A stretch of 50,472 nt of DNA. Source: an uncultured Bacilli bacterium. GTDB taxonomy: Bacteria > Bacillota_I > Bacilli_A > RF39 > UBA660. A program made the translations under genes and the position numbers. Every line of letters begins with the position of its first letter. The first letter of the stretch is position 1. The notes beneath the pieces were generated by a model. It was not told the DNA's origin and ran no database searches. It saw only the letters and a program-made list of their open reading frames with translations. Where the stretch lies: NCBI GenBank assembly GCA_944373065.1, contig CALWAJ010000001.1, positions 1-50,472 on the forward strand. Direction: 5' to 3'. Of the stretch, positions 28,705 through 50,461 are shown in pieces.

Positions 28705-28751
28705 TGGTGGCTCCAGCGGGAATCGAACCAGCGACACAAGGATTTTCAGTC
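28705..28751 (-). repeat. tRNA-Phe 3' fragment (tRNA nt 30-76 including CCA): element-distal att repeat
   Basis: 47/47 identical to 50182..50228. It ends inside the anticodon stem-loop. Confidence 0.9.
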
Positions 28752-28834
28752 TTTTACCTACTCTTTTTTATAGATTTAAGTAAATCCAAATATCTGACTA
28801 ATTCGGCCACAATTCGTTGTAATATGGGCATTTC

Positions 28835-28883
28835 TAAATTAATTTGAACTTTTGGATAATTTAGATAAATTCAAATTAATTTA
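28835..28883. repeat. Perfect 14-bp inverted repeat (taaattaatttgaa / ttcaaattaattta) in the att arm
   Basis: Read directly at 28835-28848 and 28870-28883. Confidence 0.8.
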
Positions 28884-28901
28884 ACTATTTCCCATTCATT
28901 C

Positions 28902-29050
28902 TGTCCACAGTTGTCCACAGATTTTTAGGGGAACTTTTCGTCCACAACTTATATCTGTTTCGCTTGGAACACATATAATATAACATAAAAATAATGGTTA
29001 TGCAACATATTTTCGATAAAAAATAAGAAAAGTGGATTTTTCGTCCACAA
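28902..29050. promoter_or_regulatory. Cluster of four YGTCCACAR motifs (integrase arm-type sites and/or DnaA-box-like sites)
   Basis: tgtccacag 28902-10, tgtccacag 28912-20, cgtccacaa 28939-47, cgtccacaa 29042-50. All are in the same orientation. Confidence 0.6.
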
Positions 29051-29053
29051 TAA

Positions 29054-30538
29054 TCATATTTCTATCTGTATTTCCCTACCAAATTGCCTCTTTACCTTTT
29101 CTAATATTTCTTCATTTGATAACTCACTATATTTATATTTTTCAATACTGCCTAAAGAAGGCATATTAGTAATTAGATAGTTCTTACTTTTATCAATAAT
29201 AGATGATAAATTAAAGAAATCAACATTTTCATTTGAAATTACCTCTAACGTTACTTTTAAATCTTCTAATTTAGATAATTCTGCTTTGCCAATTATGATA
29301 CTTGCAATATGTTCTACTGGAATAGTTAAAACATCATAACCATTTTTGAATAGACTTTCTTTTGAAAAACCATTAAATATACTAGTTGCATATTTTTCTA
29401 TTTTCTTTTTACTTGCATGAACATAACCTCTTGTTGTTCTTAAATCGGAATGACCTGCTAAATCTTGAACATCTCTTTCAGTTAATTTAGGATTATAGTT
29501 CATTTGATTAGTTAAATAATAATGTCTTATACCATGAAATGTAATATCAAGATTTATTTCTTCTCTTGTTCTGAAATCTTTCCAAGTTCTGCTTATTCTT
29601 GATGGTCTATAGAATCCCCCATACTGATTTAAGAATAAATTAGGTATTTCCTTATAATTAGGATTTTTTATTTTCAAATACTTAATAAAATTCTCTCTAT
29701 AAACTAAATACTCATCTAATACATCAAAAAATTCCTCTGGCATTGGTATTTCTCTAACACTACTTTCAGACTTTGGTTTATCTTCTATAAAATTACCATT
29801 TTCATCACGAACTATTACAGTATTAACACAAACTATCATTCTTTCACGATCAATATCTCTATCAAGATGTTGTCCGGCAACTTCTTCGGCTCTTAATCCA
29901 CCAAATAAAGCATACAAAAACTGTAGCCTATCTCTAATTTTTGCCTTCATTATCTTGTTTTTTATTTCGTCTAGTTGTTCAAATTCTGGAACTACTACCT
30001 CTTTAGCCTTAAAATCAGGTGCTTCAATATCACTCATTGGATTTACTCGTAACCAATTCCAGCGACAAAACCTATTAAATAAGATACTTAACATTGAATA
30101 CTCATGATGTAAAGTATTATCTGAAATAGTACCTCCTTGTCTTTTACCATTACCTCTTTTAGGACGTTTTTTCTCTTTAGCAAGTATTTTAGTCAAAAAA
30201 ATTGAATCTATATTAACTATGTCAACATTTCCTATAGCAATTTTCAATATTTCTATATATTTCTTATAACTGGTTATAGTTTGTGGTGCAGGTTTCTTTG
30301 TCTTATTTCTTAACCACTCAAGATATTCATCACAAGCATCAGAAAAGCCAATGTGCTTGACCTCATCGTGCATTCCTAAAGTGTTTTTAGCAAGATATTT
30401 TTCATTGGCTTCTGTTGCTTCTTCAAGTGTATCAAAACTTTCATCATAATCAATAGGAAATTTAGTTGACTTTTGATATCTAACTCTAAATTTACCACTA
30501 GCAGTTTTAGTAATATGTGCAGGTAATTTCTTTGTCAT
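29054..30538 (-). CDS. int: Tyrosine recombinase / phage-type integrase with a ~110-aa C-terminal extension
   Basis: Catalytic signature ...GLRAEE..., HGIRHYY, AGHSDLRTTRGYVH (R...HxxR...Y). 494 aa. Confidence 0.9.
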   Translation of the reverse strand: MTKKLPAHITKTASGKFRVRYQKSTKFPIDYDESFDTLEEATEANEKYLAKNTLGMHDEVKHIGFSDACDEYLEWLRNKTKKPAPQTITSYKKYIEILKIAIGNVDIVNIDSIFLTKILAKEKKRPKRGNGKRQGGTISDNTLHHEYSMLSILFNRFCRWNWLRVNPMSDIEAPDFKAKEVVVPEFEQLDEIKNKIMKAKIRDRLQFLYALFGGLRAEEVAGQHLDRDIDRERMIVCVNTVIVRDENGNFIEDKPKSESSVREIPMPEEFFDVLDEYLVYRENFIKYLKIKNPNYKEIPNLFLNQYGGFYRPSRISRTWKDFRTREEINLDITFHGIRHYYLTNQMNYNPKLTERDVQDLAGHSDLRTTRGYVHASKKKIEKYATSIFNGFSKESLFKNGYDVLTIPVEHIASIIIGKAELSKLEDLKVTLEVISNENVDFFNLSSIIDKSKNYLITNMPSLGSIEKYKYSELSNEEILEKVKRQFGREIQIEI

Positions 30539-30540
30539 AT

Positions 30541-30843
30541 TTAGATACCTCTAAACATTGCTTGATTATTTTTATTCTCTAACCATTTTTCTACACTTGA
30601 TTTAGGAAAAAATCTTTCTTTACCATCTTTGATAACTGGGAAATTTTCTTCCTTAATATATTTTGCAAGTTTATATTTAGAGAATATATTCGGATATAAA
30701 TCTATTAAATCCTTTGAAGTATAATATACCTCTTTTTCTTCATTGACAACGTTTATATTCAAATCATCATTTTGTACAACAATACGAATAACGTCTGCTA
30801 AAGTTATATTTTTTAACATATTATATGTTGCTAAATCTTTCAT
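30541..30843 (-). CDS. Excisionase-like / MerR-type HTH DNA-binding protein
   Basis: 100 aa immediately upstream of int. The C-terminal segment YYTSKDLIDLY...KYIKEENFPVIKDGKERFFPKSSVEKWLE resembles excisionase-family HTH proteins. Confidence 0.5.
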   Translation of the reverse strand: MKDLATYNMLKNITLADVIRIVVQNDDLNINVVNEEKEVYYTSKDLIDLYPNIFSKYKLAKYIKEENFPVIKDGKERFFPKSSVEKWLENKNNQAMFRGI

Positions 30844-30946
30844 TGTGTTTCACTCCTTTTCTGTATCATTTGTATATTTTGGTAAACACTTTGCTAATAT
30901 GTGATTTTACCAAAAGTAATAATATTTACAACCCCTGTATCAAGTT

Positions 30947-32347
30947 TTATTCTAATATATTATTTAATTCTAAACTACTTGGAAAAATATCTGATTTATT
31001 AATTATGTCTTTAGCAAAATCAAGATCAGAACGTAATATCTTATTTTCTTCTTTTTCCTTTTCAAGTAATGACTGAAAACTCTCCTCTGGTGCTTCTTCA
31101 TTTTTAATATGCCAATATTTATAATCTACTGGTACTGTTTTAGTATAATCAGAAGAATATCCATCGTATGACTGTAATACACTTATCTCAAATTTATTAG
31201 GATTTTTCCTATAAACATCAGCATATATAGAAAATATGTTATCTGATAGTACTTTAAGTTCTTTAGGAACATTATTCCGAACATCATATAAATAATAACT
31301 ATTTATAGTTGTTAATATTGATATTTTTCTTTCTGTTCCTAAAAGATTTCTAGCTTGGTTTTTCAAATACTTATAATACTCACTAATAATGGTATGTATA
31401 TTAGTAATGCTTCTTCTTCCATTATCAAGCTTCATTTGTGTAAAATCATCAATAACAATTAATGAGAGGCCAGCTCCTGTTGCCTTTAAGAATTTATCCT
31501 CTGCATAAGCAATTAATTTTTGCAAATTATAGCGAGTAGATATGATAAACTCTGACTCATCAAATAAGATTAAGTGCTTTAGATAATTCATTTTAAAATC
31601 AGTATAAACTTTTAGATAATTATCTTTATCATAATCTGAATAAGGATCATCAAAAGTAAATGGCTTATCAAATCTATTTACATCGCAAGAATGCCTTACA
31701 ATAAACCTTTTATATATTGTTTCTTTATTGTAACTTGGCGTTAAATATAGGACATTTTTACCTTGTAATATGGATTCATATGCAACATTAATTGCCCACA
31801 TACTTTTGCTAGTGTCATCTTCTCCGATAATCGTAGTCAAAGTGCCATCTTGTAATCCATAAACTTTCTCATCAATAAAATTTATACAAGATGATATATT
31901 GATTTCAACATCTTCTATTTTTCCTAAATTATCATAGGCATCATCATCTCTTATATTAATAATATCTACATATCTATCAAAAAATGCTTTAGTAGCATTT
32001 TTGCTAATTTCACCATGTTCTAACTCATTAATTAATAACTCTAGTAATTCATCTTCCTTTTCTTTTTTTCTTTCCTTAATAAACTCATCAATTTTACTTT
32101 CTAACTCTAATCGCTCATATGCTTCTATACTTTCAAAATCAGGTATGTCTTCTTTATCTAATAACTGTGTTAAAGACTTCTTTAAATCTATCGTATTAGT
32201 TAATTCAAGTTGTTCTAACATAGAATTACACATTTCTGATTCTTCAATAGTTAAGACATCTGCTTCCTTTAAATAATTAATGTTAGATATTAGTTCTTGA
32301 TTAGTAACATTAGTTTTAAAGATTCTTATAAATTCTTCTGAAACCAT
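30947..32347 (-). CDS. DnaB_C/RecA-fold ATPase (replicative-helicase-like) with an atypical Walker A
   Basis: IIGEDDTSKSMWAINVAYESILQGKNVLYLTPS (GxxxxSKS) and Walker B LSLIVIDDFTQM. Start refined to the ATG at 32345-47, preceded by AAGGAGG. Confidence 0.5.
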   Translation of the reverse strand: MVSEEFIRIFKTNVTNQELISNINYLKEADVLTIEESEMCNSMLEQLELTNTIDLKKSLTQLLDKEDIPDFESIEAYERLELESKIDEFIKERKKEKEDELLELLINELEHGEISKNATKAFFDRYVDIINIRDDDAYDNLGKIEDVEINISSCINFIDEKVYGLQDGTLTTIIGEDDTSKSMWAINVAYESILQGKNVLYLTPSYNKETIYKRFIVRHSCDVNRFDKPFTFDDPYSDYDKDNYLKVYTDFKMNYLKHLILFDESEFIISTRYNLQKLIAYAEDKFLKATGAGLSLIVIDDFTQMKLDNGRRSITNIHTIISEYYKYLKNQARNLLGTERKISILTTINSYYLYDVRNNVPKELKVLSDNIFSIYADVYRKNPNKFEISVLQSYDGYSSDYTKTVPVDYKYWHIKNEEAPEESFQSLLEKEKEENKILRSDLDFAKDIINKSDIFPSSLELNNILE

Positions 32348-32464
32348 GTTTACCTCCTTTTTTACCACTCTTATATGCAAGAAATTAGAACCGTATTTTC
32401 CTTATAATATAAGAGTTTTATAATATTCATTTGAACTTTATTTTCATCATTTTGAACTTTACTT

Positions 32465-33610
32465 TTATAAATGACTAATAGGACTATCTAAAGAAACTAT
32501 GAAACTAACATCAACATCTCTACCAATATCATCTAGTGTAAAATTATAAATAAGATTTCCATCTAAATCATAATCGTATTGATGCTTTTCTTGAAAATCC
32601 TCAGTTTCGTCGTAATTATATTTAATCTCATAGTCATATATAGTTTTATTTGAAACAAAGTCTGCTAATATTTCATTTATATACTTTAAAGTCATTTTAT
32701 AAGTTCTTAATTTATTAGGAAGACTTTTAAATCCATCGAGTTTAGAAGCAAGAGAATATCCTTTGCATTCGCCTTTCCTAGTTTCATAATGTACTTTTTG
32801 CAATATTGAATTGACATCTAACATAAATGAATTGGAATATTTCTTGTGTGGATCTTTTCTAATAAATATTTCGATTGCAATGAAATAAGCAATAACGTGT
32901 TTCATAGACTGATTCAATCGATACTGATAAAATTTAGGAAGCAAGATATTAGAATATCTGCGAGATAGCTTAATTATTTTACCAAACTGTGAAAAATGAT
33001 AAGAAAAAATAATATCATTTTTGCTCTTATAATATAAACTAGTAAAAGAAATTAGTTTTTGCTTTATCTTTAAATTGTTAACTCCATAATTTTTTCCACC
33101 TTGAGTCCTAAACTTTGGTTTAGTATCAATAATGATTTCTTTTTTAGATAATTTATTCAAAGTTGTAACATAACTCTTGTAATTAACATCAGAAATTTTT
33201 ATCTTTTTGGCTTTACCTCTCCTACGATAATTTCTTTCAAATTCAGTTAATGAAAAATCATAATCAAAATCTGTTTTTAAATATCTATCAAATAAGATAT
33301 TGCAAAATAGTATTTCAACATTACTAAAATATAAGTTGTCCTTCAATAAGTTAAATATTTCTTCTTGTGCTTCTGTAGATAACTCACTAAATTTGCATAT
33401 TTCACCATTAACAGTTAATAGTTCTTTTGGTATTTTTGCAATTAAACCTACGGTGTAATCCCTACCTGAAATCTGATTAATTAAATGTTCTTCTTCATTA
33501 ATAGTTTTAACAACAACGCTAGATAAATTTAATTGATAAAGATTAGCAAGAAGATTATCGTGAACAGTAATTATAGCTTTTTCGCTAAACCTGTTTTTTA
33601 TTTTAGTCAT
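32465..33610 (-). CDS. Hypothetical protein (possible replication initiator, by position only)
   Basis: 381-aa ORF directly upstream of the helicase-like gene. No motif recognised. Confidence 0.45.
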   Translation of the reverse strand: MTKIKNRFSEKAIITVHDNLLANLYQLNLSSVVVKTINEEEHLINQISGRDYTVGLIAKIPKELLTVNGEICKFSELSTEAQEEIFNLLKDNLYFSNVEILFCNILFDRYLKTDFDYDFSLTEFERNYRRRGKAKKIKISDVNYKSYVTTLNKLSKKEIIIDTKPKFRTQGGKNYGVNNLKIKQKLISFTSLYYKSKNDIIFSYHFSQFGKIIKLSRRYSNILLPKFYQYRLNQSMKHVIAYFIAIEIFIRKDPHKKYSNSFMLDVNSILQKVHYETRKGECKGYSLASKLDGFKSLPNKLRTYKMTLKYINEILADFVSNKTIYDYEIKYNYDETEDFQEKHQYDYDLDGNLIYNFTLDDIGRDVDVSFIVSLDSPISHL

Positions 33611-33611
33611 A

Positions 33612-33806
33612 CTATTTTATCCTTAAAGTTTGTTTTTGTGTTTTATTTCTAGTAACAGGCCATACTTCTAATGTAATTACTTGTGCAGTTCTTGTAAGTT
33701 TTGCTTTTACTTCTACATTGACTGTTTTGTCAGGTTTTTCTTCTGTTATTGTTCTTGTGATAAATTGCCTACAATTAGGGCAATTATTTTTTAGATTTTC
33801 CATCAT
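33612..33806 (-). CDS. Small hypothetical protein with an N-terminal CxxC
   Basis: 64-aa ORF, tightly packed between neighbours. Confidence 0.4.
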   Translation of the reverse strand: MMENLKNNCPNCRQFITRTITEEKPDKTVNVEVKAKLTRTAQVITLEVWPVTRNKTQKQTLRIK

Positions 33807-33818
33807 ACCAACTCCTTT

Positions 33819-34058
33819 CTATAAAAACCAATCTCTATTTTTGTTATAGGCTTCGTCTTTTGCTTCAAAGTAACACTTTTCACATAAACCTCTGTGATCT
33901 TTAGTTTTTGCTTTACCACATTTTAAGCATTCAGAATAAGTCTTACCATTCCTGTAATTGTAATAACAAGTATCACAACTTCTGTGCTTAAACCTAGTAA
34001 AGTATGTTTTACCACAATTAAGGCAAACACTTTCTTTAAAATCACCCATATCTTTCAC
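33819..34058 (-). CDS. Small Cys-rich Zn-ribbon protein (six CxxC pairs)
   Basis: CLNC...CDTC...CLKC...CEKC spacing in 79 aa. RBS aaaggag. Confidence 0.5.
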   Translation of the reverse strand: MKDMGDFKESVCLNCGKTYFTRFKHRSCDTCYYNYRNGKTYSECLKCGKAKTKDHRGLCEKCYFEAKDEAYNKNRDWFL

Positions 34059-34278
34059 TCCTTTCTGTATTTTTAAGCAATTATTTAAAAATCACTTAAA
34101 TCGAATATTAATAAAGTGAGTCTATTTTAAGACAATTTGAATAGAATTTTAGACTAATTGACTTTTTGAAGCTCTCACTTCGGATTCATTATTTCATAGT
34201 TTATATTAATTTACTATTGACAAAACGAGACCACTTTGAGACAATAATAAACAAATTTACACAGGGAGGTATAACAAA

Positions 34279-35310
34279 ATGAATTTTAAAGATTATTTAA
34301 AAGTGAGCACAGCTTATATACAAGTAAAGAATGTATATAAAATAGAAAAAGATTACAATATCAAAATTAAAGATTTTAAAAAATCATCAGCAGATGATGA
34401 GTATTATGATTTAATAATTGATAAAATAGAAAAAGGAGAAATAACTCAACATACTGATTTAGAAACTTTATTCTATAGTTATATTAAATTAGGGAAATCC
34501 TTGTATGAAATAAATAAAGATAATATAAATAAAATTAAAGTTTATAAACAAAATATATTTAATATTAACGTTGAGGCCAATCTAATCGTAAACAAAATAA
34601 ATAATAAATCTTTAAAAGTTTTAACAGAATGGTTAAATAATAATTTTATTCTTACAATAGATAAAGACCTAGATAAAGGATATTTTACTGAAACAACTAA
34701 ATTAATAGACTTATCTATATTTATGTATTTAGTAACACAGGCTTTTAAAACAGAGTTTGGAATTAAAAGTAATAGCAATAAAGTTTCCTTTAATATGTTT
34801 ATTGACTATAAAAATAGTAATCCAAATTATCTATCAATAATAGAAAAAGTAATTGATTTCTTTGAGGAATCATTATTACGTAAATATATTAAAGAAAAGA
34901 CAGAATTAATATATGATGAAGAAACTTCTTATCTAAAACCTTATAAAGTTTTTGACAATATATATAGTTTAATGTGGTATATCTTTAAATTATATTTATC
35001 TTTTTTAACAACGCAAGGAGTAGATACACCACTTTATACTTTATGTAAAGTTTGTGGTAGTAACACTGATAATTTTAAAAATAAATTATGCCCAAGTTGT
35101 AAAGAAAAATATGCAACTATAAGACGTGCATTAAATAGAGAAAATAAAAAGAATCTTGATAAAATTAAGATTCTAATAACAGGACAAACATTCCCATCTA
35201 ATTTACAAGAACGAATTGATATGATTTTAAACAAAAAGATTAAGCATGAGGATAATAATCTAATTAAACACTTATTGCGAGACATAGAAGAATATCTTAA
35301 TTTGGTATAA
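34279..35310 (+). CDS. Hypothetical protein with a C-terminal CxxC...CxxC Zn ribbon. The only long plus-strand gene in the element core.
   Basis: 343-aa ORF, RBS gggagg. CKVCGS...CPSCKEKY. Confidence 0.55.
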   Translation: MNFKDYLKVSTAYIQVKNVYKIEKDYNIKIKDFKKSSADDEYYDLIIDKIEKGEITQHTDLETLFYSYIKLGKSLYEINKDNINKIKVYKQNIFNINVEANLIVNKINNKSLKVLTEWLNNNFILTIDKDLDKGYFTETTKLIDLSIFMYLVTQAFKTEFGIKSNSNKVSFNMFIDYKNSNPNYLSIIEKVIDFFEESLLRKYIKEKTELIYDEETSYLKPYKVFDNIYSLMWYIFKLYLSFLTTQGVDTPLYTLCKVCGSNTDNFKNKLCPSCKEKYATIRRALNRENKKNLDKIKILITGQTFPSNLQERIDMILNKKIKHEDNNLIKHLLRDIEEYLNLV

Positions 35311-35318
35311 AAGTCTTT

Positions 35319-35942
35319 TTACTTACTTTCATATATCCTAATATTGTTATAAACAGTATTTCTACATTTTCCCCATAGCCTAGCAAACTCACATAAATTA
35401 ATTTGCTTTGCTTTATACTGTGCATAATATTTTATAAACATTGGATCTTCATCTAATGTTTTTTTAGTTTTAATTGGTCTACCAAACTTAACACCATTTG
35501 CTAAAGCTGCATTTATACCTTCAAGTTGACGTTGATTAATAAATCTCCTCTCCTGCTCTGCAACATAAGATAATATTTGTAATACTAAATCACTAATAAA
35601 AGTACCTAATAAATCTTTATTCTTTCTTGTATCTAATAATTCCATATCTATAACAACTATATCAGCTTTAATGTTTTTAGTAATATCTCTCCATTCATCC
35701 ATAATTTGATTATAATCTCTTCCCAAACGGTCAATACTTTTAATTACCAGTAAATCATTTTCCTTTAATTTACTCTTCATTATTTGATATTGCTTTCTAT
35801 TAAAATCTTTACCACTTTGTTTATCAATATAAATATTTTCTTTATCAATTCCATATTCTTTAAATGATAACAACTGACGAGCTTCATTTTGTGATATATC
35901 ACTTACTCGTCCATATGCCATTGTTTTATTTTTTGTTTCCAT
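35319..35942 (-). CDS. Serine recombinase (resolvase/invertase family)
   Basis: N-terminal AYGRVSDISQN catalytic-Ser motif, SIDRLGRD, and a C-terminal HTH. 207 aa. Confidence 0.85.
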   Translation of the reverse strand: METKNKTMAYGRVSDISQNEARQLLSFKEYGIDKENIYIDKQSGKDFNRKQYQIMKSKLKENDLLVIKSIDRLGRDYNQIMDEWRDITKNIKADIVVIDMELLDTRKNKDLLGTFISDLVLQILSYVAEQERRFINQRQLEGINAALANGVKFGRPIKTKKTLDEDPMFIKYYAQYKAKQINLCEFARLWGKCRNTVYNNIRIYESK

Positions 35943-36124
35943 TTTTGTATCCTTTCTAAATTCAAATGCCCAATAAAAGTCATCTTGACTTTATTGAACA
36001 ATTTTAATATAAATAACATCAATTTATGTAGATAATTAACTATCAATAGACTGCCCAAAAAAAGTATGCTTATATTGAACACCTAAAATTACAAATAAAG
36101 GCATCTATATAATGCCCTTATTAT

Positions 36125-36433
36125 CTAATAATTAGTTTTATTCAATTTCTCTGCATCTTCCTTTGAAGTTAAAAATGTTGCTTTATTAATAACTACTACC
36201 ATTTCATTATCAATAACTCGAAGTTGTCCTTTTACTCCTATTATCGAGTTAATGGCACAATACTCATTTATATACTTAACTTTCTCTTTAGGAACAATAC
36301 ATTTGATAAGATCTGCTTCATAAATACCATCTTTATTTTTTTCGCTACTTGGTATTCGCAATATCAGTATTACTTTATTATATTTTTGAATAAGTTCTTT
36401 AAACATTCCTACTAATATACACATATTAAGCAT
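36125..36433 (-). CDS. Short SSB-like OB-fold protein (no acidic C-terminal tail)
   Basis: MLNMCILVG..., EADLIKCIV, GVKGQLRV parallel the MLNRVVLVGRL / EADFINCV / VDGRLQ pattern of bacterial SSB. Confidence 0.55.
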   Translation of the reverse strand: MLNMCILVGMFKELIQKYNKVILILRIPSSEKNKDGIYEADLIKCIVPKEKVKYINEYCAINSIIGVKGQLRVIDNEMVVVINKATFLTSKEDAEKLNKTNY

Positions 36434-36434
36434 T

Positions 36435-36641: not shown

Positions 36642-36673
36642 GTTCTCTTAAATATTTAGTCACTAAATAATAT

Positions 36674-40241: not shown

Positions 40242-40243
40242 CC

Positions 40244-42521: not shown

Positions 42522-42523
42522 AA

Positions 42524-43387: not shown

Positions 43388-43446
43388 GTACCTAAGGTAT
43401 AAAACAAATACACTTCAAGTTGTTAAAATTAAGTTAGGTGAGGAAA

Positions 43447-43824
43447 ATGATTATAAACGATAGAGAAAATTATGATAAAATTAGAGCTTCTATTTCCATG
43501 GATAATTTGAAAAAAATTATAGATGCTAAAGGTTTTACTACAACCAAAGTTGCTGTAGAATCTAAAATAAGCGATTCAGCTATTATTTCTTATATCTCTG
43601 GAAATAAGATACCCAGTCTTCCAGTGTTGATAAGTATAGCAAACTACCTAAATTGTAATTTAGATTATCTTGTTGGAAGAACTGATAATCCAATAAAAAT
43701 AGATGATATGAGTAAGTCATATAATGATAAAGATTTAATGTTGTTACTACAGAATATAAATTCTTTACCTAAAGATAAACAAGAACTAGTTAAGGCTTAT
43801 GTAAAAGGATTAATGGATAATTAA
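43447..43824 (+). CDS. XRE-family HTH regulator, divergent from the 287-aa gene
   Basis: KGFTTTKVAVESKISDSAIISYISGNKIPSLPVLISIANYLNCNLDYLVGR. ATG at 43447 preceded by aggtgagg. Confidence 0.8.
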   Translation: MIINDRENYDKIRASISMDNLKKIIDAKGFTTTKVAVESKISDSAIISYISGNKIPSLPVLISIANYLNCNLDYLVGRTDNPIKIDDMSKSYNDKDLMLLLQNINSLPKDKQELVKAYVKGLMDN

Positions 43825-43832
43825 TATAGAGA

Positions 43833-43897
43833 AGAAATATTACATATTATAATAATTAGATAAATGTAATTATATAGTAATGTAGTATTTCTTTTTT
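43833..43897 (+). terminator. Long hairpin terminator after the XRE gene
   Basis: agaaatattaca / tgtagtatttct stems plus TTTTTT. Confidence 0.55.
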
Positions 43898-43939
43898 GTT
43901 TGGAAAACGATTCTTAATTAGGATTTTACAACAATTAAA

Positions 43940-44605
43940 CTAATTTGCAACAGTTTTTAGAAAATATTCCCATTTATTTAGTTTTAGGTTTGGTACTATA
44001 TCACTGTTATTAAACTTGTTCCAATAATTAAGAATATCTTTGATATAAAGTAAACTTGGTAGTTTTTCATTCACTGCTACTTTTAAGGCTTTAAGGACTA
44101 AAGTAGCATTGTAAGTTTTAATTAATGTGTTAATTATAGTTTTTTCTTCATTAGTTAGAAATCGATAAAATGCTTCTTCAAATTCATCATAAACTTTTAT
44201 TTCTTCACTTATAAAATTTTTGTTATGTATGAAACTTTTAGAGTGGTTATTTACATTTTTGATGATGAAAAGTAATTTATCATAATAAGGACTAATTATT
44301 TTAAGTACATCATTAGTAATATAATGTGATGTTCCTCTACTTGTGTTATTAATTCTAATAATAAACTTACCTTCTCTATTCTTTAAACATCTTTTGTTTT
44401 TAGCAAGAAAAGGACGGACATTTTCAATAATAGTTCTAATTTTAGTCATAGTTTCTTCATTTAATTGGAATAGTTTTTCACCTTTATTAGGACCATAAAC
44501 TATTCCATTATCATAAACAGTTATTTTATAGTATTGATTTAGTTGTAAACTGATATACCATTTGTTAGTTCTCATATTGATTCTTCCTTTCATAGTATCG
44601 TGCAA
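43940..44605 (-). CDS. DnaD-domain-like replication protein
   Basis: The C-terminal ...TLVLKALKVAVNEKLPSLLYIKDILNYWNK resembles the DnaD/DnaB_2 C-terminal motif (YI..IL..W). Confidence 0.4.
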   Translation of the reverse strand: MHDTMKGRINMRTNKWYISLQLNQYYKITVYDNGIVYGPNKGEKLFQLNEETMTKIRTIIENVRPFLAKNKRCLKNREGKFIIRINNTSRGTSHYITNDVLKIISPYYDKLLFIIKNVNNHSKSFIHNKNFISEEIKVYDEFEEAFYRFLTNEEKTIINTLIKTYNATLVLKALKVAVNEKLPSLLYIKDILNYWNKFNNSDIVPNLKLNKWEYFLKTVAN

Positions 44606-45212
44606 CGTGTAACCACATTTGCACCAGTTGTAACAAAGTTAATTATAAGTTAGATATAACACTATATAAGTGTTAGTAATAAACAGGATTAGCCCATAAT
44701 ATAAACGTGAATGTTAGTTGCACGATTTAGTTTCTGATTTTTAGTTATAATTGTTATTAAACTAGTTGTTAGTTTCATAACTGTTATTGTTATTAGTAAT
44801 AGTTAAATTATTAGTTTTAGTAGTGTTATTGTTAAGTTAACTCTCTTTAGTATTAATATTATAAGGTTTGTGGTAAGCTGTGCCTTGAAAATTGCAGATC
44901 CGTTTCATGGACGTACCTAATCCACGGCGAGCCGGCATCGATAACCCTTATTTTATTCAATTTGTTTACCACAAAATAAACAAGTGTAACAAAGTTTGAT
45001 TATTTAGTAGTATAAACCATCGAGATTTTAGTTTTACACCAAATTCAACAGTTTATGAACAAATTGAAAGCCATATCTGCGTCTGGCAAATTTAAAATAC
45101 CCATTTGTATTGAATATTTTAAACTTACTTTAAAAGGTTTTTGTTTTTAATAATGTTAATACTGATATTAGTATTATTAGTATTGTTGTTTTTATTTCAA
45201 CCAGCATTAATA
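44606..45212. other. ~600-bp non-coding region: candidate element origin and/or structured RNA
   Basis: No credible ORF. AT-rich iterated tagt/ttatt runs. A 26-nt direct repeat (44852-44877 and 45206-45231). A ~50% GC island at 44877-44945 bracketed by the inverted repeat tttgtggtaa / ttaccacaaa. Confidence 0.5.
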
Positions 45213-45369
45213 TTATAAGGTTTGTGATAAGTAGTGCTGTTTTCGAGTTAGCTCTCGCCAAAGTTGTAAATCAATCGTTGATATATGTGGATAATTACTA
45301 TCTTTGATTAAAAGTTTTATGATAATAACTATCACTTCACTAATATATATGAAACATTTATATAATATC

Positions 45370-45666
45370 TTAACTTTTTGATATTTTTTCAACAATAAGT
45401 TTTTCTTTATCTGTAATCTTTAAGTGATACTTTTCTTTTAATGTCTTGTCTATGAGATAATATAACAAATTCTTTCCTTTATCATCTGTTAAGTAATATT
45501 CTTTAGAATCGTTAATAATTCCATCTAAACTCATATAATTTCTATTATTAAACCTAGTATAGAAAGCATTGATATTGCTTGCTACTAAAGAAGCAAAGAA
45601 AAACATATAATTAGTTTCCAAAGCATTTACATAGTCATCTATTGTATCTATAACTGCACTATCCAT
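45370..45666 (-). CDS. Hypothetical protein
   Basis: 98-aa ORF downstream of the PcfJ-like gene. Confidence 0.45.
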   Translation of the reverse strand: MDSAVIDTIDDYVNALETNYMFFFASLVASNINAFYTRFNNRNYMSLDGIINDSKEYYLTDDKGKNLLYYLIDKTLKEKYHLKITDKEKLIVEKISKS

Positions 45667-45682
45667 AACTTGCTCCTTTCTC

Positions 45683-47119
45683 CTATCTTATATATGAATT
45701 GTTGGAATAAATCATCTTGTTTTTTGCCCATTTATTAATAAAATTCATTTGTTCATTGTTTGGAAGATAATTATCCTTTATTCTACATTGAACTACTCTA
45801 TTGTTTTTAACTTCTATTGTAACAAGTGATTTTTCTTTATGCTCTATTTCTCTCATAAAATAAATATCAGTTTCTGCTAAAGCATAATCATCAATATATG
45901 TCTTAACACAATTGTTTTGTTGTTTTGACTCATCAAGTAAACTCTCTACTGAATTAGCTGCAAAGACTACATACTTTTTATCATTATAAGTAAACTTATC
46001 TAATAGTTTAGCACGTTCTTTAATTAATTTATCATTTGACTCATTAAGAACTAACTTTAATAAATTAATAGCCTTATCATGTGCTTCCTTAAGATTTTTA
46101 GGATATAATACCCTACTATTTTTCATATCATATTCTAATCTTACACAAGCCTTAAGATAGTCCAAATATTCATATTCACTATTATAATTAATAGATAAAA
46201 CTTTCTTATAAGCCTTTTCTAAATTAACATAATTAGATAGTTCTTTTAAATTACCTATCCCTTTAAGTTTATCAATTAACTTTATATCTTCTTTTTGTAT
46301 AATCTTCAATACTTCTAATTCCTGTCTATCAATATTATTTCTTTTCATAAATGGATAAAATGTTTTAGGTACTCCAAAAATCTCTTTAAATGTTTTTCCA
46401 CTATTGAAACTATCTGCTTCACGAGCTAAATTATAAAGTTTTAATTTTACTAACATTTCAAAACTATGATAATATGCTAGTCTTGTAAAATAGTAAATAA
46501 AATCTATATAACTCATCTTGGCTACAAACTTATCTAACTGCGAATATTTTAAGTCAGTATTTTTTAATAGCCTTTTTAAATTATACGGGCATACCATACC
46601 TTGAACATCTCTATAAGCCCAACGATAATTTCTACCTCGCCAATATTCAAACTCTTGATAATGTGCTATATACATATAACCCATATGGTTATGAACTTGG
46701 TTAGTTACAAAATCCTTAATCTCATTATTATCAATAATCGTTCTCATATATTCAGTTATTTTGTGGGTGGTATGAAACTGATTATAAGTAGAATATAATT
46801 CAAAAGTTCTTAAGATAAAGGTATCTTCAATTCTATCTAATAGTTGCAAGTTATCCTTAAATTCACATTGTTGTAAACGATCAGTTTTTACAAGTAATGT
46901 TTGCTTACAATTAGGACATTTGATTTCATCATTAACTTTTACTTTAGAGATAAAATGATAGTCACAATTAGTGCAATAACATTTACTATTCTTACTTTTA
47001 ATAATTAAATTATGAGTTTGTTCTTTTTCCTTAATAAATCTTTCAAAACAACTTGGAATTATAAACTTTTCATCTGCCAAAGATAATAGTCTTCTATACT
47101 TTTTCTTGATATATGTCAA
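45683..47119 (-). CDS. PcfJ-like protein with an N-terminal Zn ribbon
   Basis: CYCTNCDYHF...CPNCKQTL. The C-terminal ESKQQNNCVKTYIDDYALAETDIYFMR...SLVTIEV resembles the PcfJ-family HCV..Y core. It overlaps the PcfK-like gene. Confidence 0.5.
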   Translation of the reverse strand: MTYIKKKYRRLLSLADEKFIIPSCFERFIKEKEQTHNLIIKSKNSKCYCTNCDYHFISKVKVNDEIKCPNCKQTLLVKTDRLQQCEFKDNLQLLDRIEDTFILRTFELYSTYNQFHTTHKITEYMRTIIDNNEIKDFVTNQVHNHMGYMYIAHYQEFEYWRGRNYRWAYRDVQGMVCPYNLKRLLKNTDLKYSQLDKFVAKMSYIDFIYYFTRLAYYHSFEMLVKLKLYNLAREADSFNSGKTFKEIFGVPKTFYPFMKRNNIDRQELEVLKIIQKEDIKLIDKLKGIGNLKELSNYVNLEKAYKKVLSINYNSEYEYLDYLKACVRLEYDMKNSRVLYPKNLKEAHDKAINLLKLVLNESNDKLIKERAKLLDKFTYNDKKYVVFAANSVESLLDESKQQNNCVKTYIDDYALAETDIYFMREIEHKEKSLVTIEVKNNRVVQCRIKDNYLPNNEQMNFINKWAKNKMIYSNNSYIR

Positions 47120-47472
47120 AACTCTAACTCCAAAGATAATTGACCTGTCGGCTTATCTTCTTTCTTCTCTACTTTAGTTTTTAAAGTAATTGGTATAGGG
47201 TTATTTAACCCTAATTCTTCATTATCTTTTTGAAAATACTCTAAAGACCAATTATATACTATTTCATCTTCAATAACTGCTACATTATTTACTGCTTGTT
47301 CTTTAGCTTTACGATTAATATAACTCATCATTTGTGTTAAGTTCTTTTCTTGATTAAGATAAACATCACTCATATCTGGTACTTTGATTAGATATTCAAG
47401 AATAATACTTAAGGCATTATCATTTTTTCCATCATCTCTATATAACTGTTTTAGTCTTTCGTATCCATCCAT
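47116..47472 (-). CDS. PcfK-like protein (the family that includes the anti-CRISPR AcrIIA9)
   Basis: 118 aa. The pattern LEYLIK...MMSYINRKAKEQAVNNVAVIEDEIVYNWSLEYFQKDNEELG parallels PcfK-like proteins. Adjacent to a PcfJ-like gene, as on pCF10. Confidence 0.45.
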   Translation of the reverse strand: MDGYERLKQLYRDDGKNDNALSIILEYLIKVPDMSDVYLNQEKNLTQMMSYINRKAKEQAVNNVAVIEDEIVYNWSLEYFQKDNEELGLNNPIPITLKTKVEKKEDKPTGQLSLELEF

Positions 47473-47507
47473 TTCGTTAATCCTTTCACTGTGTCTATAC
47501 TAATTTT

Positions 47508-47768
47508 CTACTTGTAGTTTCTAAATGCCTCAATAGTCGCTTTAATTAACTTTTTATTAAATCTAAATTGCCCCGACAATTGGAAATATATATTTGGAAC
47601 ATATTTTACTGCTTCCATTGCTAGATTAATATTACTATTAATTAATTCAACTAATATAGGAGAAACTTCATAGATTTTAGTATCCTTACTCATTACTTTT
47701 AGTATTTCTATAGCATCATTTCCATTAATTATCTTTACACCTACTCCAACATCATCTTTAGTTTCCAA
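47508..47768 (-). CDS. Hypothetical small protein (TTG start)
   Basis: 86-aa ORF with a strong RBS, AAAGGAGGTG, 4 nt upstream. Confidence 0.45.
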   Translation of the reverse strand: METKDDVGVGVKIINGNDAIEILKVMSKDTKIYEVSPILVELINSNINLAMEAVKYVPNIYFQLSGQFRFNKKLIKATIEAFRNYK

Positions 47769-47972
47769 TTTGCACCTCCTTTAACTACTAGTTAAACACA
47801 GTGTAATTTATTTACAACCCCCTAACAAAAATTAACAAAGAATAACAAAAAAAGATTATATTATTCATACAATCTTTTCATTTATATATTATTTTTATAA
47901 AATATTCATATCTTGAACATCTGCATTTAATAATCTGTTTATAATTTCTTTTACAATAATACCTAAATTATT

Positions 47973-48527
47973 TTATTTACTAACGTTGAAAGAATACTCA
48001 ATGTATGTAAATATTATTCTATCTGGAATATTTGCATCTATAGAGACATTTTGTAAATGCTCCAATGTTGGTTTTATTCCATCCGCCTCTTTACGCAACT
48101 GTGAAAGTATAATAATTGGCACATTATATTCTACTGCAATTGATTTTAATTCTCGCAATACATCATTACTTTCTTGGATATTAAAACGAATTTCTAATAA
48201 TTCTATATAATCAATAATAACTATATCTATATCTTTAGATTCTTCAAGAAATTTTTTTATGTCGTTCATAGATTTCGTATCAAGTCCATTAATGATATTT
48301 AAATTTTCATTAAGATAACTGTCATTTAGTCTTTCTTTAATACGTGAATATAAAAATTCTAGTGAACTCTCAAAATTAAAAAATAATATTTTTTTATTAT
48401 TTTCACTTGCTATTTCACTTGCTAATTTCAAACTAAAAAATGTCTTACCAGTGTATGTTCTTCCTGCTACGAGTATTAAATCATTAGAATTAATTGTTTT
48501 TGCTAATTCGTTTATCTCTTTATTCAT
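47973..48527 (-). CDS. Small RecA/DnaB_C/KaiC-like P-loop ATPase
   Basis: Walker A LVAGRTYTGKTFFSLKLA, Walker B IVIIDYIELL, then IIILSQLRKE (DnaB-like). Confidence 0.6.
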   Translation of the reverse strand: MNKEINELAKTINSNDLILVAGRTYTGKTFFSLKLASEIASENNKKILFFNFESSLEFLYSRIKERLNDSYLNENLNIINGLDTKSMNDIKKFLEESKDIDIVIIDYIELLEIRFNIQESNDVLRELKSIAVEYNVPIIILSQLRKEADGIKPTLEHLQNVSIDANIPDRIIFTYIEYSFNVSK

Positions 48528-48708
48528 AATTACCTCACTTCCTTGCTACATATGTTACCACAATTAAATATGTAATACAAACCTATTTTAGATTTCTAGT
48601 ATAATACCAACTAGCTTGCCAGTTAAACCAACTCTAACCCACAAAAAAGAGATTGCCAATATGTTGGCAACCTTTTAATAAAATAACAAATTAAAACGTT
48701 TTAAAACG

Positions 48709-50055
48709 TTAATTATATATAATATCTAAACACATTAAATATATCTTCTCATCTTCTAATGTAATATTAGAATCTTTATTTTCACTTTTTATATGCCAGT
48801 ATATTGGATTAAGCTCTAAACAAGCCTTTATCATATCAGTTTTAATTAAATATTCTTCTTTTGAATATAACCTTCTATCGGTTATTATTTTATTCTTCAC
48901 TCTTTTCTTAACTTTTAAAAACTCACCCATAGTCATTTCATTTACTGCTAATGGATTTTCTATTCTAACACATTTACAAAATCTGCTCCTCATTGCTTCC
49001 GTAATATCACCTTTAGAACATAGAGCTATTAAAGGCCTTTTAGTTTCTTCAATAAACTTTAATAATGCTCCTTGCCCTACTTTAGAAATAAAAGATAAAT
49101 CTCCGAAAGCTACTGTTTTTTCTGTTTCAAAATCATAAGTTGAAATAAATTTAATAACATCATCTGGTGTTTTTAAAAAATAAATATCATCACTATATAA
49201 TTCTTTAAACAATTTACAACCTAGTTCTCCCATTATAATAGTAGTCATAAACTCTTTTGCACTATTAATAGAACTTATTACTTTTTGTTTTTTACTATCA
49301 ATAATCATACTCATATCAGTTTGTTCTTTTTTCATTAAACTATGAGTTAAATAATGACAATCATTACCATAGAATATATCATTAAATAAACTAAATAATC
49401 TTAAAGTAGGATCATTTAAACACCTGCATAATTTAAAATGATTTTTAATAGCATTAGGTAATTTTCGCTTATATAAATAACAAAACTTTTGTTGTTTAGA
49501 GTATAGCCAATTATTAGTTATACTACTTACTTTATTTTCAACACTATTTATAATAAACATTATTAACATTTCTTCAATTTTATTTACATTTTTATCATTA
49601 CAACATTTTAAAAGCATAGCAAGGAATAATCTAGGACAGTCTATAACCTCTAACAAAGAGTTTACTGCAAACTCTGATTCAATATATAAATTTGGTAGCT
49701 CACCACATATCCATAGATATTTAAAGTAATAAAGAAATTCATCATATTTAGTTGTCATCAAGAAATAGTTGCTACTTGTTGGTTTTTTATTATGTTTTTT
49801 ATAAGCTAATTCAAGTAACGTTTCCCTATCATCTAAATTATAATCACCTGAACTAGATACAATGATATATGGTACATCACTTTTTTTAACTAATTCAAAT
49901 ATTAAACCACTACCAGAATATATAAATGGCTTATTGGTATTAATAGAGTAAATAACATCTTCTTTAGTTTTTACTATTCTAAATTTAGGATACATAAATT
50001 GTATAATACCAACATCACTACATATAACTTGCTTATTTATTAATTCGTCAAGCAT
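48709..50055 (-). CDS. Hypothetical protein with a C-terminal clamp-loader (DNA pol III delta/delta')-like AAA+ remnant
   Basis: TVAFGDLSFISKVGQGALLKFIEETKRPLIALCSKGDITEAMRSRFCKC parallels the D..(M)...A.NALLKTLEEP...TI.SRC signature. No intact Walker A is seen. Confidence 0.4.
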   Translation of the reverse strand: MLDELINKQVICSDVGIIQFMYPKFRIVKTKEDVIYSINTNKPFIYSGSGLIFELVKKSDVPYIIVSSSGDYNLDDRETLLELAYKKHNKKPTSSNYFLMTTKYDEFLYYFKYLWICGELPNLYIESEFAVNSLLEVIDCPRLFLAMLLKCCNDKNVNKIEEMLIMFIINSVENKVSSITNNWLYSKQQKFCYLYKRKLPNAIKNHFKLCRCLNDPTLRLFSLFNDIFYGNDCHYLTHSLMKKEQTDMSMIIDSKKQKVISSINSAKEFMTTIIMGELGCKLFKELYSDDIYFLKTPDDVIKFISTYDFETEKTVAFGDLSFISKVGQGALLKFIEETKRPLIALCSKGDITEAMRSRFCKCVRIENPLAVNEMTMGEFLKVKKRVKNKIITDRRLYSKEEYLIKTDMIKACLELNPIYWHIKSENKDSNITLEDEKIYLMCLDIIYN

Positions 50056-50080
50056 ACTTTATCACTCCTTAAAAATAACT

Positions 50081-50134
50081 CTGTGGACAAAAATAGTATA
50101 CTGTGGACGAAAATTTCAAATATTTTGTGGACAA
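50081..50134. promoter_or_regulatory. Cluster of three TGTGGAC(A/G)A motifs, inverted relative to the left-end cluster
   Basis: ctgtggacaa 50081-90, ctgtggacga 50101-10, tgtggacaa 50126-34. Confidence 0.6.
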
Positions 50135-50167
50135 AAAAATCAACTACTTCTTCTAGAAGCGTTGATT
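50133..50167 (-). terminator. Rho-independent terminator immediately downstream of the intact tRNA-Phe
   Basis: aatcaac / gttgatt stem enclosing the palindrome cttctagaag, with a 7-nt T-run on the minus strand. Confidence 0.65.
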
Positions 50168-50181
50168 TTATTAGCTTTTAA

Positions 50182-50257
50182 TGGTGGCTCCAGCGGGAAT
50201 CGAACCAGCGACACAAGGATTTTCAGTCCTTTGCTCTACCGACTGAGCTATGAAGCC
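50182..50257 (-). tRNA. tRNA-Phe: tRNA-Phe (anticodon GAA), intact, CCA encoded
   Basis: The reverse complement folds as GGCTTCA-TA-GCTC-AGTCGGTA-GAGC-A-AAGGA-CTGAAAA-TCCTT-GTGTC-GCTGG-TTCGATT-CCCGC-TGGAGCC-A-CCA. There is one T-stem mismatch (U51/C63). Confidence 0.9.
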
Positions 50258-50314
50258 ATTTCGTTTAAATTAATCTAAATAGGAACAAGTGTGATAAAAT
50301 ACGTTTATTCTATT

Positions 50315-50335
50315 TTGTCCACACTCTGTCCACAG
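50315..50335. promoter_or_regulatory. Two more GTCCACA motifs between the intact and the decayed tRNA-Phe copies
   Basis: ttgtccaca 50315-23 and ctgtccacag 50326-35, in the same orientation as the left-end cluster. Confidence 0.55.
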
Positions 50336-50400
50336 ACTAATTTAAAGCTCTAGTTTATATATATCAAAGCTCCTTGAAATATAAGCATAAAACTTATATT

Positions 50401-50461
50401 GTGGCAGAACCTAGGACAAAGGATTTTCAGTCCTTTGCTCTACCGACTGAGCTATGAAGCC
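50401..50461 (-). pseudogene. Decayed tRNA-Phe copy: nt 1-43 are perfect, the 3' half is degenerate with a T-arm deletion
   Basis: 50419-50461 is identical to 50215-50257. Downstream it reads TGTCCTAGGTTC--TGCCAC, against GTGTCGCTGGTTCGATTCCCGCTGGAGCCACCA in the intact gene. Confidence 0.75.

Follow-up and report, generated by a model that had tools for sequence, protein, structure and literature searches.

A genomic island of uncultured Bacilli that probably splits a host tRNA-Phe gene and carries an intact replacement

Three tRNA-Phe segments and the genes between them

Three segments derived from tRNA-Phe are found on the minus strand of the window (the whole 50,472-nucleotide stretch analysed), where a first-pass annotation had placed them. 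The intact one, copy (ii), occupies 50182–50257; it is the sole tRNA-Phe (GAA) called by ARAGORN, and it scores 66.7 bits in Rfam. Segment (i), at 28705–28751, is identical to 50182–50228 in 47 of 47 nt and comprises tRNA nt 76–30, which is the 47-bp direct repeat already recognized in that annotation. Copy (iii) consists of two parts: directly after the host tRNA-Asp, 50419–50461 is an exact match to tRNA nt 1–43, and its 3′ continuation at 50401–50418 reads TGTCCTAGGTTCTGCCAC in tRNA orientation. This copy is not called by ARAGORN, lacks a T-arm and does not fold into a cloverleaf; its Rfam score, 33.2 bits, is above the gathering score of 29. The stretch common to (i) and (iii) is GACTGAAAATCCTT, 14 nt of the anticodon stem-loop (nt 30–43), as had also been noted. 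This core is at 28738–28751 in the former and at 50419–50432 in the latter.

Segment (i), as the displaced nt 30–76 of the host tRNA-Phe, is taken here as the host side of attR, and nt 1–43 in copy (iii) as the host side of attL. On the element side of attR, the first DNA beside the core is a stretch named X (28752–28775, minus strand), which reads ...AAAAAGAGTAGGTAAAA in tRNA orientation and is identical in every attR copy, across two different host flanks (L005 and L016–L020). A derivation of X from a decayed tRNA 5′ part was considered and dropped, its likeness to nt 19–29 not being significant (p ~0.10). On the element side of attL, 50401–50418 appears to be an internally deleted, decayed remnant of a tRNA 3′ half. 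Its local-alignment likeness to that half is modest (p ~0.05 against shuffles), and the alignment keeps the register of the core. In the relative L025, the tRNA likeness of the decayed tail is no longer detectable (p ~0.7).

Copies (ii) and (iii) are separated by a spacer of 143 bp (50258–50400, minus strand), not 145 bp as first counted, which contains an AT-rich hairpin and a tandem TGGACA pair at 50317–50334; the presence of this pair, reported earlier as GTCCACA motifs, was borne out. GTCCACA occurs 11 times against 1.4 expected, a number reached in none of 100 shuffles, and 9 of the 11 occurrences fall in three clusters. These are the spacer pair (plus strand), the integrase-proximal arm at 28903–29049 (plus strand; four sites, at 28903, 28913, 28940 and 29043), and three sites in the opposite orientation at 50082–50132 (minus strand), downstream of the element tRNA, which are kept in the relatives L021, L022, L023 and L025. 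The repeats are putative arm-type binding sites of the integrase. L033 and L034 keep the arrangement of a single site and a tandem pair, and the motif changes along with the integrase; in L046, whose integrase is 52% identical, the motif is TGTGGTCCA and the layout is unchanged. Between the core and the arm sites there is an inverted repeat, GGCCACAAT..ATATGGGC (28805–28829), and by alignment a hairpin stands at this position in the arms of the integrase relatives at 69% and 60% identity too; an accessory-protein site and an int terminator are both possibilities for it.

Copy (ii) is co-oriented with the host tRNA operon and lies 143 bp inside the left end of the element. It is followed, as first proposed, by an intrinsic terminator of its own (50133–50169, minus strand), with a hairpin of −12.8 kcal/mol (z = −4.5) and then a T run; a simple consensus terminator scan did not flag this hairpin. 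A promoter scan of the spacer returned only weak promoter-like sites, with 9-of-12 matches.

About 300 bp from attR lies the gene for a 494-aa tyrosine integrase (29054–30538, minus strand; PF00589, E = 1.8e-15; PHROG 1 'integrase', E = 4e-43), which by its domain would be the agent of recombination between attP and attB. The small HTH_17 protein beside it (30541–30843, minus strand; PF12728, E = 2e-4, under the curated cut-off) is a candidate excisionase or directionality factor, and a gene of about 100 aa is present next to int in all relatives examined. According to Pfam and PHROGs scans, the island body (30947–50055, minus strand) encodes DnaB-like ATPases, a small serine resolvase, a DnaA AAA+ fragment, zinc-ribbon paralogues, Cro/CI-type HTH regulators, a DnaD-like protein, PcfJ/PcfK, and a 448-aa protein without an assigned function. 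No conjugation genes were detected in the body by these scans, no capsid, tail or terminase domains in Pfam scans of 26 element ORFs, and no phage structural PHROGs in ten of the larger proteins, a set that took in those with no Pfam hit. IMG/VR yielded no relative of the 448-aa protein; a 33% relative (P0004) occurs in unrelated phage-like contexts with no tRNA and was set aside. A temperate phage was likewise rejected as the carrier, with no structural genes found and no IMG/VR match for the protein or the att patterns.

The search for integrase homologues returned 48, and all four loci at which the flank was read adjoin a tRNA-Phe 3′ fragment (69%, 60% and 52% identity; the 503-aa integrase of L005). 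In the relatives at 69%, 60% and 52%, attR is composed of element DNA, GACTGAAAATCC.. and the tRNA-Phe 3′ half. In the integrase cluster P0005 (93% identical), where the attR of host 2 was sought, the contig stops at the int stop codon.

Empty sites, host alleles and related arrangements

Two element-free contigs from the same host (L001 and L003) carry the tRNA cluster, a single tRNA-Phe and then the same RadC/MreC flank. Their cluster shares 99.4% identity with the one in the occupied contig L006, and their tRNA-Phe equals nt 1–43 of (iii) fused to (i), which is the empty site that the first-pass annotation had suggested looking for. In these contigs, as in L035–L044 from a second host, an intact tRNA-Phe stands exactly at the insertion position of the element. 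The host tRNA-Phe is the last gene of a ten-tRNA cluster, and segment (iii) joins this cluster just as the empty sites do.

A near-identical element is present in two other host species, at 98.5% and 94.6% identity. In host 2 (L007/L008) it is 98.5% identical over 11.7 kb, and alignment of the host DNA is confined to the tRNAs and a few pieces, with 70–89% identity. There, (iii) has G7 and T17, and (ii) has the A7 and C17 of the element. The native tRNA-Phe of host 2, a single copy with G7, C66 and a different T-stem, is found in 10 of 10 element-free contigs (L035–L044), and none of them contains the 204-bp scar described below. T17 is absent from these ten contigs; in L007/L008 it is either a strain difference or a later mutation. 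The third host (L021, MAG UMGS592) also has G7 in (iii) and A7 in (ii). Because the allele of the element, which is almost identical to that of host 1, is kept in hosts 2 and 3, copy (ii) lies inside the mobile unit. The spacer is identical in the three host species save one SNP in one scar copy, and 50401–50418 is the same in hosts 1, 2 and 3. In a further host (L018–L020), attR bears the host C42 after X and GACTGAAAATCC, which bounds the crossover to tRNA nt 30–41; the core is 14 nt long here and 12 nt in hosts with C42.

The arrangement of a broken copy, a spacer and an intact tRNA recurs in a relative whose neighboring protein is 46% identical, where it is seen in two different host contexts (L025/L028/L029 and L026/L030). 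Compared with the window, its (ii) is identical at 74 of 76 positions, its spacer at 110 of 144 (76%) and its decayed tail at 12 of 18. The conservation of (ii), including a compensatory change from A28:T42 to G28:C42, is consistent with a functional gene. Its spacer retains the second TGGACA site and the spacing, with a one-base difference in the first site (CTATGGACA). The broken copy (iii′) of this relative is a hybrid, because it has G28 but T42.

In L002, (iii), the spacer and (ii) are joined to the host flank and the island body is absent; thus, the body can be missing while 204 bp remain. L026 and L030 retain an older scar, and all three contigs are best read as remains after loss of the body across the 47-nt repeat; the comparison data are all metagenome assemblies, in which repeats of 44–47 nt allow occasional misassembly in states seen on a single contig. 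A related element in L023 immediately follows an intact tRNA-Phe in the host position, with neither (iii) nor a spacer, and arrays of decayed left-end modules occur in L022 (at ~7440–7600) and in L012. L013, a G27 variant, was considered as proof of a canonical junction and not accepted, the contig beginning at tRNA nt 18. A scan of GTDB genomes returned three loci only.

A split host gene with its replacement, and the alternatives

Interpretation starts from what is seen directly, namely the junction positions, the empty sites, the host-specific bases in (iii) and (i), and the presence of a conserved module in a diverged relative. We consider it probable, at roughly 85%, that a 21.7-kb element at 28752–50418 splits the host tRNA-Phe at the anticodon loop and carries an intact replacement. 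The first-pass annotation had put forward this possibility, and the empty sites and host-specific bases support it. The mobile unit would extend from about 28752 to 50418, with the 14-nt core at each end, and its tyrosine integrase would insert it into the anticodon stem-loop of the host gene by site-specific recombination. Its attachment site would share just ~12–14 nt with the target, GACTGAAAATCC[TT] (nt 30–41/43), and integrase cleavage probably takes place within the anticodon loop. Neither junction would rebuild a tRNA: attL would join the host 5′ part to the decayed, T-arm-less tail as (iii), and attR would hold the bare 3′ fragment (i). This loss would be covered by the complete tRNA-Phe (ii) with its own terminator, whose transcription may continue from the host operon or start at a weak promoter in the spacer. 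Copy (ii) would presumably be needed for the viability of integrants.

The three copies would form three pairs of direct repeats, and recombination within each pair would leave one working tRNA-Phe. Between (iii) and (i), over 14 nt, it would produce precise excision and restore the host gene; between (ii) and (i), over 47 nt, the body would be lost and the 204-bp scar would stay with a working tRNA; between (iii) and (ii), over 44 nt, 204 bp would be removed to give a canonical-looking island. The distribution of states suggests that excision proceeds through (iii) and (i). The circle expected from it would read X + GACTGAAAATCCTT + TGTCCTAGG, and a canonical circle would instead read X + 47 nt + TTAAAAGC. 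The circular junction of X, core and decayed tail was absent from all fetched contigs and from IMG/VR, scans of IMG/VR with both predicted attP junctions gave no match, and a JGI metagenome scan with the core and decayed tail matched only the UMGS592 contig. The earlier suggestion that dependency on the tRNA stabilizes the element was overstated, as all three deletions would leave an intact tRNA-Phe; an addiction-like role for (ii) is rejected, loss routes with a working tRNA being shown by the empty sites and the scar.

The locus could also be explained by an ordinary island, bounded by the 47-nt repeat of (ii) and (i) and with an attP that rebuilds the gene, if (iii) and the spacer were a fixed older remnant and the island had landed in the tRNA left behind by that earlier event. 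Entry into such a scar is possible in principle. L002 shows (iii), spacer and (ii) at the host flank without an island, L026 and L030 show that a tRNA remaining from an older scar can receive an element, the relative in L023 has the canonical arrangement, and three inverted TGGACA sites lie ~96–146 bp from the core of (ii), a plausible arm spacing. Nevertheless, this explanation is unlikely, since the decayed tail, spacer and (ii) travel together into three host species, host-specific bases are confined to the 5′ half of (iii), and 0 of the 10 element-free host-2 contigs have the scar. With the possible exception of L013, no contig puts the element straight after a host-type 5′ half, and the origin of the scar would itself still require a non-restoring integration.

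Clearly less probable again is the second possibility raised earlier, in which another, related element alongside has left (iii) and the spacer as its decayed end. Decayed left-end modules do form arrays in L022 and L012, and L026 and L030 have their older scar; but a tandem array should have the intact gene on the 5′ side and fragments downstream, whereas here the broken copy is 5′-most, the distance from (iii) to (ii) is only 143 bp, and the diverged relative keeps that stretch together as a unit. For the window, this possibility found no support. An ancestral tandem duplication of the host tRNA-Phe, with one copy decayed and no relation to the island, is scarcely credible, even though the tRNA cluster does end with two co-oriented tRNA-Phe-like sequences at a distance of 204 bp. 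Such a duplication in element-free DNA had been named beforehand as evidence against a split gene; instead, L001 and L003 in host 1 and all ten contigs of host 2 have a single tRNA-Phe. The sole exception, L002, has a spacer bearing the motif of the element. Moreover, the spacer contains the element's own arm motif and is identical between hosts with flanks only 70–89% identical.

If the host gene is split by an element with its own replacement, island finders that use an intact tRNA and a displaced 3′ fragment would set the boundary 204 bp too far in and would label the element's own tRNA as the host gene. As a whole tRNA is carried, just ~12 conserved target bases are needed by the island, and this design may account for the occurrence of a 98.5%-identical element in hosts with barely alignable flanks. 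The states on view in natural populations are the empty site, several occupied hosts, the scar and the re-targeted scar. A more doubtful extension is that the element replaces the host tRNA-Phe allele and carries its own landing site. If true, each integration would make the tRNA-Phe of the element, flanked by integrase arm sites, the working gene, and body loss across the 47-nt repeat would fix a chimeric or element-type allele together with the 204-bp scar. The scar tRNA would then be the target of the next element, as L026 and L030 appear to be. Over time, the tRNA-Phe allele and att site in these gut Bacilli would be set by island traffic and not by vertical descent, and a self-compatible whole tRNA would open any host that keeps just the 12-nt anticodon-loop core.

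Comparison with known systems

An anticodon-loop sublocation class was reportedly distinguished by Williams in 2002. In canonical tRNA-targeting islands and prophages, the gene gets its 3′ part back from the element (Islander database, PMC4383910). The present element resembles them in having a tyrosine integrase at one end, an anticodon-loop crossover and a displaced 3′ fragment at the far end, and at first sight its limits are an intact tRNA and a 47-nt direct repeat. Unlike in canonical islands, the intact tRNA is entirely element DNA, the actual junction lies 204 bp farther outward, in the broken copy, and the attP side meant to restore the gene has no T-arm. In effect, the direct repeat of the 3′ part is present and is not the outer boundary. 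Nor is (ii) the hybrid tRNA expected of canonical islands: in L007, L008 and L021 its 5′ half has A7, and the host G7 is in (iii). L046, an ICE with a 52% identical integrase, shares the tRNA-Phe target, the attR structure and the arm layout; it differs in its type IV coupling protein, sortase and arm motif, in a comparison that covers the attR end.

The closest parallel is tRNA-dependent lysogeny, described for actinobacteriophages such as Fionnbharth, LeBron and Gaia, with the Lactobacillus johnsonii prophage Lj965 also cited (Guerrero-Bustamante & Hatfull, mBio 2024; PMC10865867). In the phages, the logic has been proven experimentally, including the tRNA requirement, and the common core is 8–17 bp (PMC10865867). 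Both systems have a tyrosine integrase, an attB in a host tRNA gene and paired arm-type sites, putative here, on both sides of the core; because the core is short (8–17 bp in the phages, 12–14 nt here), no tRNA is rebuilt at either junction. In both, close relatives alternate between restoring and non-restoring forms. Unlike the phages, the element has no detected structural genes and no IMG/VR relatives (448-aa protein and att junctions), its target is tRNA-Phe, and its hosts are low-GC, spore-forming gut Bacilli known only as MAGs. Its replacement gene is 143 bp from the crossover and co-oriented with the host tRNA operon, whereas that of Fionnbharth is elsewhere in the genome, overlaps the protein-coding gene 37 and is driven by a strong promoter of its own. 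The near-identity of its allele to that of host 1 also differs from the phage system, and the tRNA requirement, experimentally proven in the phages, is inferred here. The element behaves like a member of the tRNA-dependent lysogeny family, yet it is not a prophage. This extends the 2024 phage finding to a genomic island of uncultured gut Bacilli that is not a phage, and its strategy matches one already known from phages.

The tRNA-Phe copies and the island in the window

The first-pass annotation described three tRNA-Phe-derived segments, which are borne out by direct alignment, ARAGORN and Rfam. The sole tRNA-Phe (GAA) called by ARAGORN in the window lies at 50182-50257 on the minus strand and scores 66.7 bits in Rfam, with a weak tRNA match (33.2 bits) at 50402-50461. 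By direct alignment, a 47-nt 3′ fragment at 28705-28751 is identical to tRNA nt 30-76, and the 5′ part of a broken copy, at 50419-50461, to nt 1-43; nt 30-43 (GACTGAAAATCCTT, here the core) are common to both partial copies. The broken copy ends in a short tail without a T-arm (50401-50418, TGTCCTAGGTTCTGCCAC), which may derive by decay from a tRNA 3′ half (support marginal, p about 0.05). The intact gene does have its own terminator, a hairpin (-12.8 kcal/mol, z = -4.5) and then a T run on its 3′ side. As for the spacer between intact gene and broken copy, it carries GTCCACA motifs as described, but measures 143 bp rather than 145 bp. This motif occurs 11 times against 1.4 expected, with nine copies in three clusters, at both inner island ends and in the spacer. 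The T-stem of the tRNA-Phe of the window species (host 1) and of the element (50182-50257) has a U51/C63 mismatch, and one element variant (L014, 1-30) has G51, which restores the pair. Some 5 kb outside the island, a lone tRNA-Ala (TGC; 23847-23922, plus strand) is surrounded by host genes and has no integrase or repeat near it.

A tyrosine integrase of 494 aa (29054-30538) adjoins the 3′ fragment and is followed by a small HTH_17 protein. The remaining island genes encode DnaB-like ATPases, a resolvase, a DnaA AAA+ fragment, DnaD-like, PcfJ and PcfK proteins, Cro/CI-type regulators and several unknowns. PHROGs gave no match to phage structural families among the island proteins searched, and the 448-aa protein encoded beside the intact tRNA has no relative in IMG/VR; thus, the element is treated as an integrative island, not a prophage. 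The DnaA fragment (183 aa, 36674-37225, minus strand) consists of the AAA+ ATPase domain alone (PF00308, E = 7.7e-52), without the N-terminal and DNA-binding domains, and may modulate replication. At 37724-40683 (minus strand), three adjoining paralogous genes (399, 429 and 138 aa) encode N-terminal zinc ribbons, and their DNA repeats reach 94% identity over 300 nt (families D1-D5).

Empty sites and element boundaries

Two explanations had been offered for the three-part layout: an element spanning 28752-50418 that splits the host tRNA-Phe and carries a replacement, or a decayed second element in tandem. Host-1 contigs were gathered through the host protein just left of the 3′ fragment. In two of them (L001 and L003), the cluster reads ...Met-Asp-Phe, with one intact tRNA-Phe and then directly the host flank GTTAGACTTTT. 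This tRNA-Phe is exactly nt 1-43 of the broken copy fused to the 3′ fragment, which is the empty site that the first explanation predicts. L001 and an occupied contig (L006) have tRNA clusters with 99.4% identity, so empty and occupied sites come from one species. In L002, the broken copy, spacer and intact gene are joined directly to the host flank and the island is absent (a scar), and L005 and L016 agree with the window at the integrase end.

Two other host species were found among contigs encoding the 448-aa protein. In host 2 (L007/L008), 11.7 kb of the element align at 98.5% identity, whereas matches between host DNA and that of host 1 are confined to tRNAs and a few short segments (70-89% identity). 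Here the 5′ half of the broken copy is GGCTTCGTAGCTCAGTTGG (G7, T17), the intact gene retains GGCTTCATAGCTCAGTCGG and, from the core inward, the sequence is identical to the window except for one SNP. The native host-2 gene was recovered through a neighbouring S1-domain protein: each of ten element-free contigs has a single tRNA-Phe, which carries G7, C66 and a T-stem of different sequence and precedes tRNA-Arg and tRNA-Pro. None of the ten has a scar or T17. In host 3 (L021, MAG UMGS592, labelled 'uncultured Tenericutes'), the broken copy has G7 and the intact gene A7, and in a further host (L018-L020) the attR fragment is GACTGAAAATCCCTG, with the host C42 on the host side. Combined, these sequence comparisons place the left boundary of the mobile unit inside the broken copy, indicate that the intact gene and spacer travel with the element, and put the exchange within tRNA nt 30-41. 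Together with the empty sites and the host-specific bases in the broken copy, this supports an element at 28752-50418 that splits the host tRNA-Phe and carries its replacement, to which we assign a probability of about 0.85; a decayed second element in tandem is not supported.

Several variants were observed at these sites. L004 (1-60) and 17 similar contigs have the host-1 flank with a G28:C42 tRNA-Phe allele and break at tRNA nt 19; this allele is that of the tRNA carried by a diverged relative (46%, see below). L013 (1-30) has a G27 variant upstream of the element. Such alleles could stem from scars that replaced the host allele, from polymorphism among strains or from canonical junctions. 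The tRNA cluster of host 2 is followed, just past its tRNA-Pro, by another tyrosine integrase (417 aa; L042 and L044, 5784-7037) whose neighbours (Peptidase_M78, HTH) are prophage-like; thus, this cluster is used by more than one element family. Some host-2 strains also have an IS element (HTH_Tnp_1 and rve) between genes on the upstream side of the cluster, and both orientations occur (L038, 1450-2696; L044, 1404-2653).

Proposed integration and loss routes

By analogy with other anticodon-loop integrases, strand exchange would most likely occur in the anticodon loop, with the stem halves as core sites. Since attP and attB have only 12-14 nt in common, no tRNA is formed at either junction. 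The lost function would be replaced by the tRNA-Phe of the element itself, which is co-oriented with the broken copy and lies 143 bp downstream of it. A weak hairpin (-7.9 kcal/mol, z = -1.2) follows the tail and the spacer has only weak promoter-like sites, which makes read-through from the host tRNA operon plausible. A tRNA-carrying mobile unit would give the circular junction ...AAAAAGAGTAGGTAAAA-GACTGAAAATCCTT-TGTCCTAGGTTCTGCCACAATATAAG..., canonical excision would give ...GGTAAAA-GACTGAAAATCCTTGTGTCGC...GGAGCCACCA-TTAAAAGC..., and the host-2 attR would read 28752-28775 (element DNA beside the attR core) + GACTGAAAATCCTT + GTGTCACAGGTTCGATTCCTGTCGGAGCCACCA + TTTATTT. No circular junction was found among the fetched contigs or in IMG/VR.

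Taken two at a time, the three tRNA copies make up direct repeats of 14, 47 and 44 nt. If the 14-nt pair recombined, the host gene would be restored, and the corresponding state was seen. The 47-nt pair would yield a scar with a working gene, seen in L002 and in the older scar of L026/L030, and the 44-nt pair an island of canonical appearance; L023 could be such a product, or else a canonical relative. The comparison sequences all come from metagenome assemblies; the scar is represented by one contig plus older scars in two assemblies, and the canonical-looking state by one MAG. The suggestion that dependency on the tRNA stabilises the element was overstated: these simple routes of loss are not lethal to the host, so the tRNA does not hold the element in place as claimed. 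Where the host's own allele differs, as in host 2, loss through the 47-nt pair would set A7 against C66, a mismatch, and some dependence is conceivable there.

Relatives and comparison with known systems

A relative with a 46%-identical neighbouring protein (P0003) has the same layout in two host contexts (L025/L028/L029; L026/L030). Compared with the window, its intact tRNA matches at 74/76 positions, the sole change being compensatory (A28:T42 to G28:C42), its spacer at 110/144 and its tail at 12/18. In the spacer, spacing is preserved, as is the second TGGACA site; one base differs in the first. Its broken copy is a hybrid, with G28 but T42, so exchange again occurred 5′ of nt 42. In L026 and L030, an older, partly deleted spacer-like scar precedes the module, which indicates that the tRNA left behind by one element was later entered by a new one. 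From these sequences, the three-part layout appears to be a family trait, not a one-off.

Related integrases form 48 clusters. Those at 69%, 60% and 52% identity all adjoin element DNA, GACTGAAAATCC.. and the tRNA-Phe 3′ half. The arm layout is conserved, and in the 52% relative the motif is TGTGGTCCA, a change that fits putative arm-type sites evolving along with the integrase. The element of this 52% relative (L046, 6751-11542) lies at tRNA-Phe, has the TGTGGTCCA arm repeats and is probably conjugative, as it encodes a type IV coupling protein and a sortase. In L012 (9830-9885), the left-end module (with its terminator, its three GTCCACA sites and the gene for the 448-aa protein) abuts, at ...GTTGTAGATAACTACGACAATGGCACCA/TTAAAAGC, mobile DNA of an unrelated kind that encodes a Mob_Pre relaxase and a 653-aa serine recombinase, and tRNA-Phe is absent; the contig may be misassembled or represent a recombinant element. 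In L022 (7440-7600) and L023 (near 15330), the first left-end module is followed, about 7.4 kb further downstream, by another, decayed one, itself preceded by the tRNA-3′-like ...TAATACCA; this suggests remnant arrays at this site in some genomes.

The exact precedent is 'tRNA-dependent lysogeny' (PMC10865867), in which phages, Fionnbharth among them, integrate by a tyrosine integrase at an attB located within a host tRNA. Their core, of 8-17 bp, does not rebuild the gene, and viable lysogens require a phage-encoded tRNA of the same isotype. Close relatives alternate between restoring and non-restoring forms; prophage Lj965 is cited as a possible Firmicutes case, and prevalence beyond actinobacteriophages is stated as unknown (PMC10865867). 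Judged by sequence, the window element shares four of the features that define this system, but its carrier is not a phage. Its particulars are a tRNA tightly linked to attP and in line with the host operon, a tail that is perhaps a decayed tRNA 3′ half, and a cycle of scar and re-targeting. This is a known kind of mechanism in a new carrier and host group.
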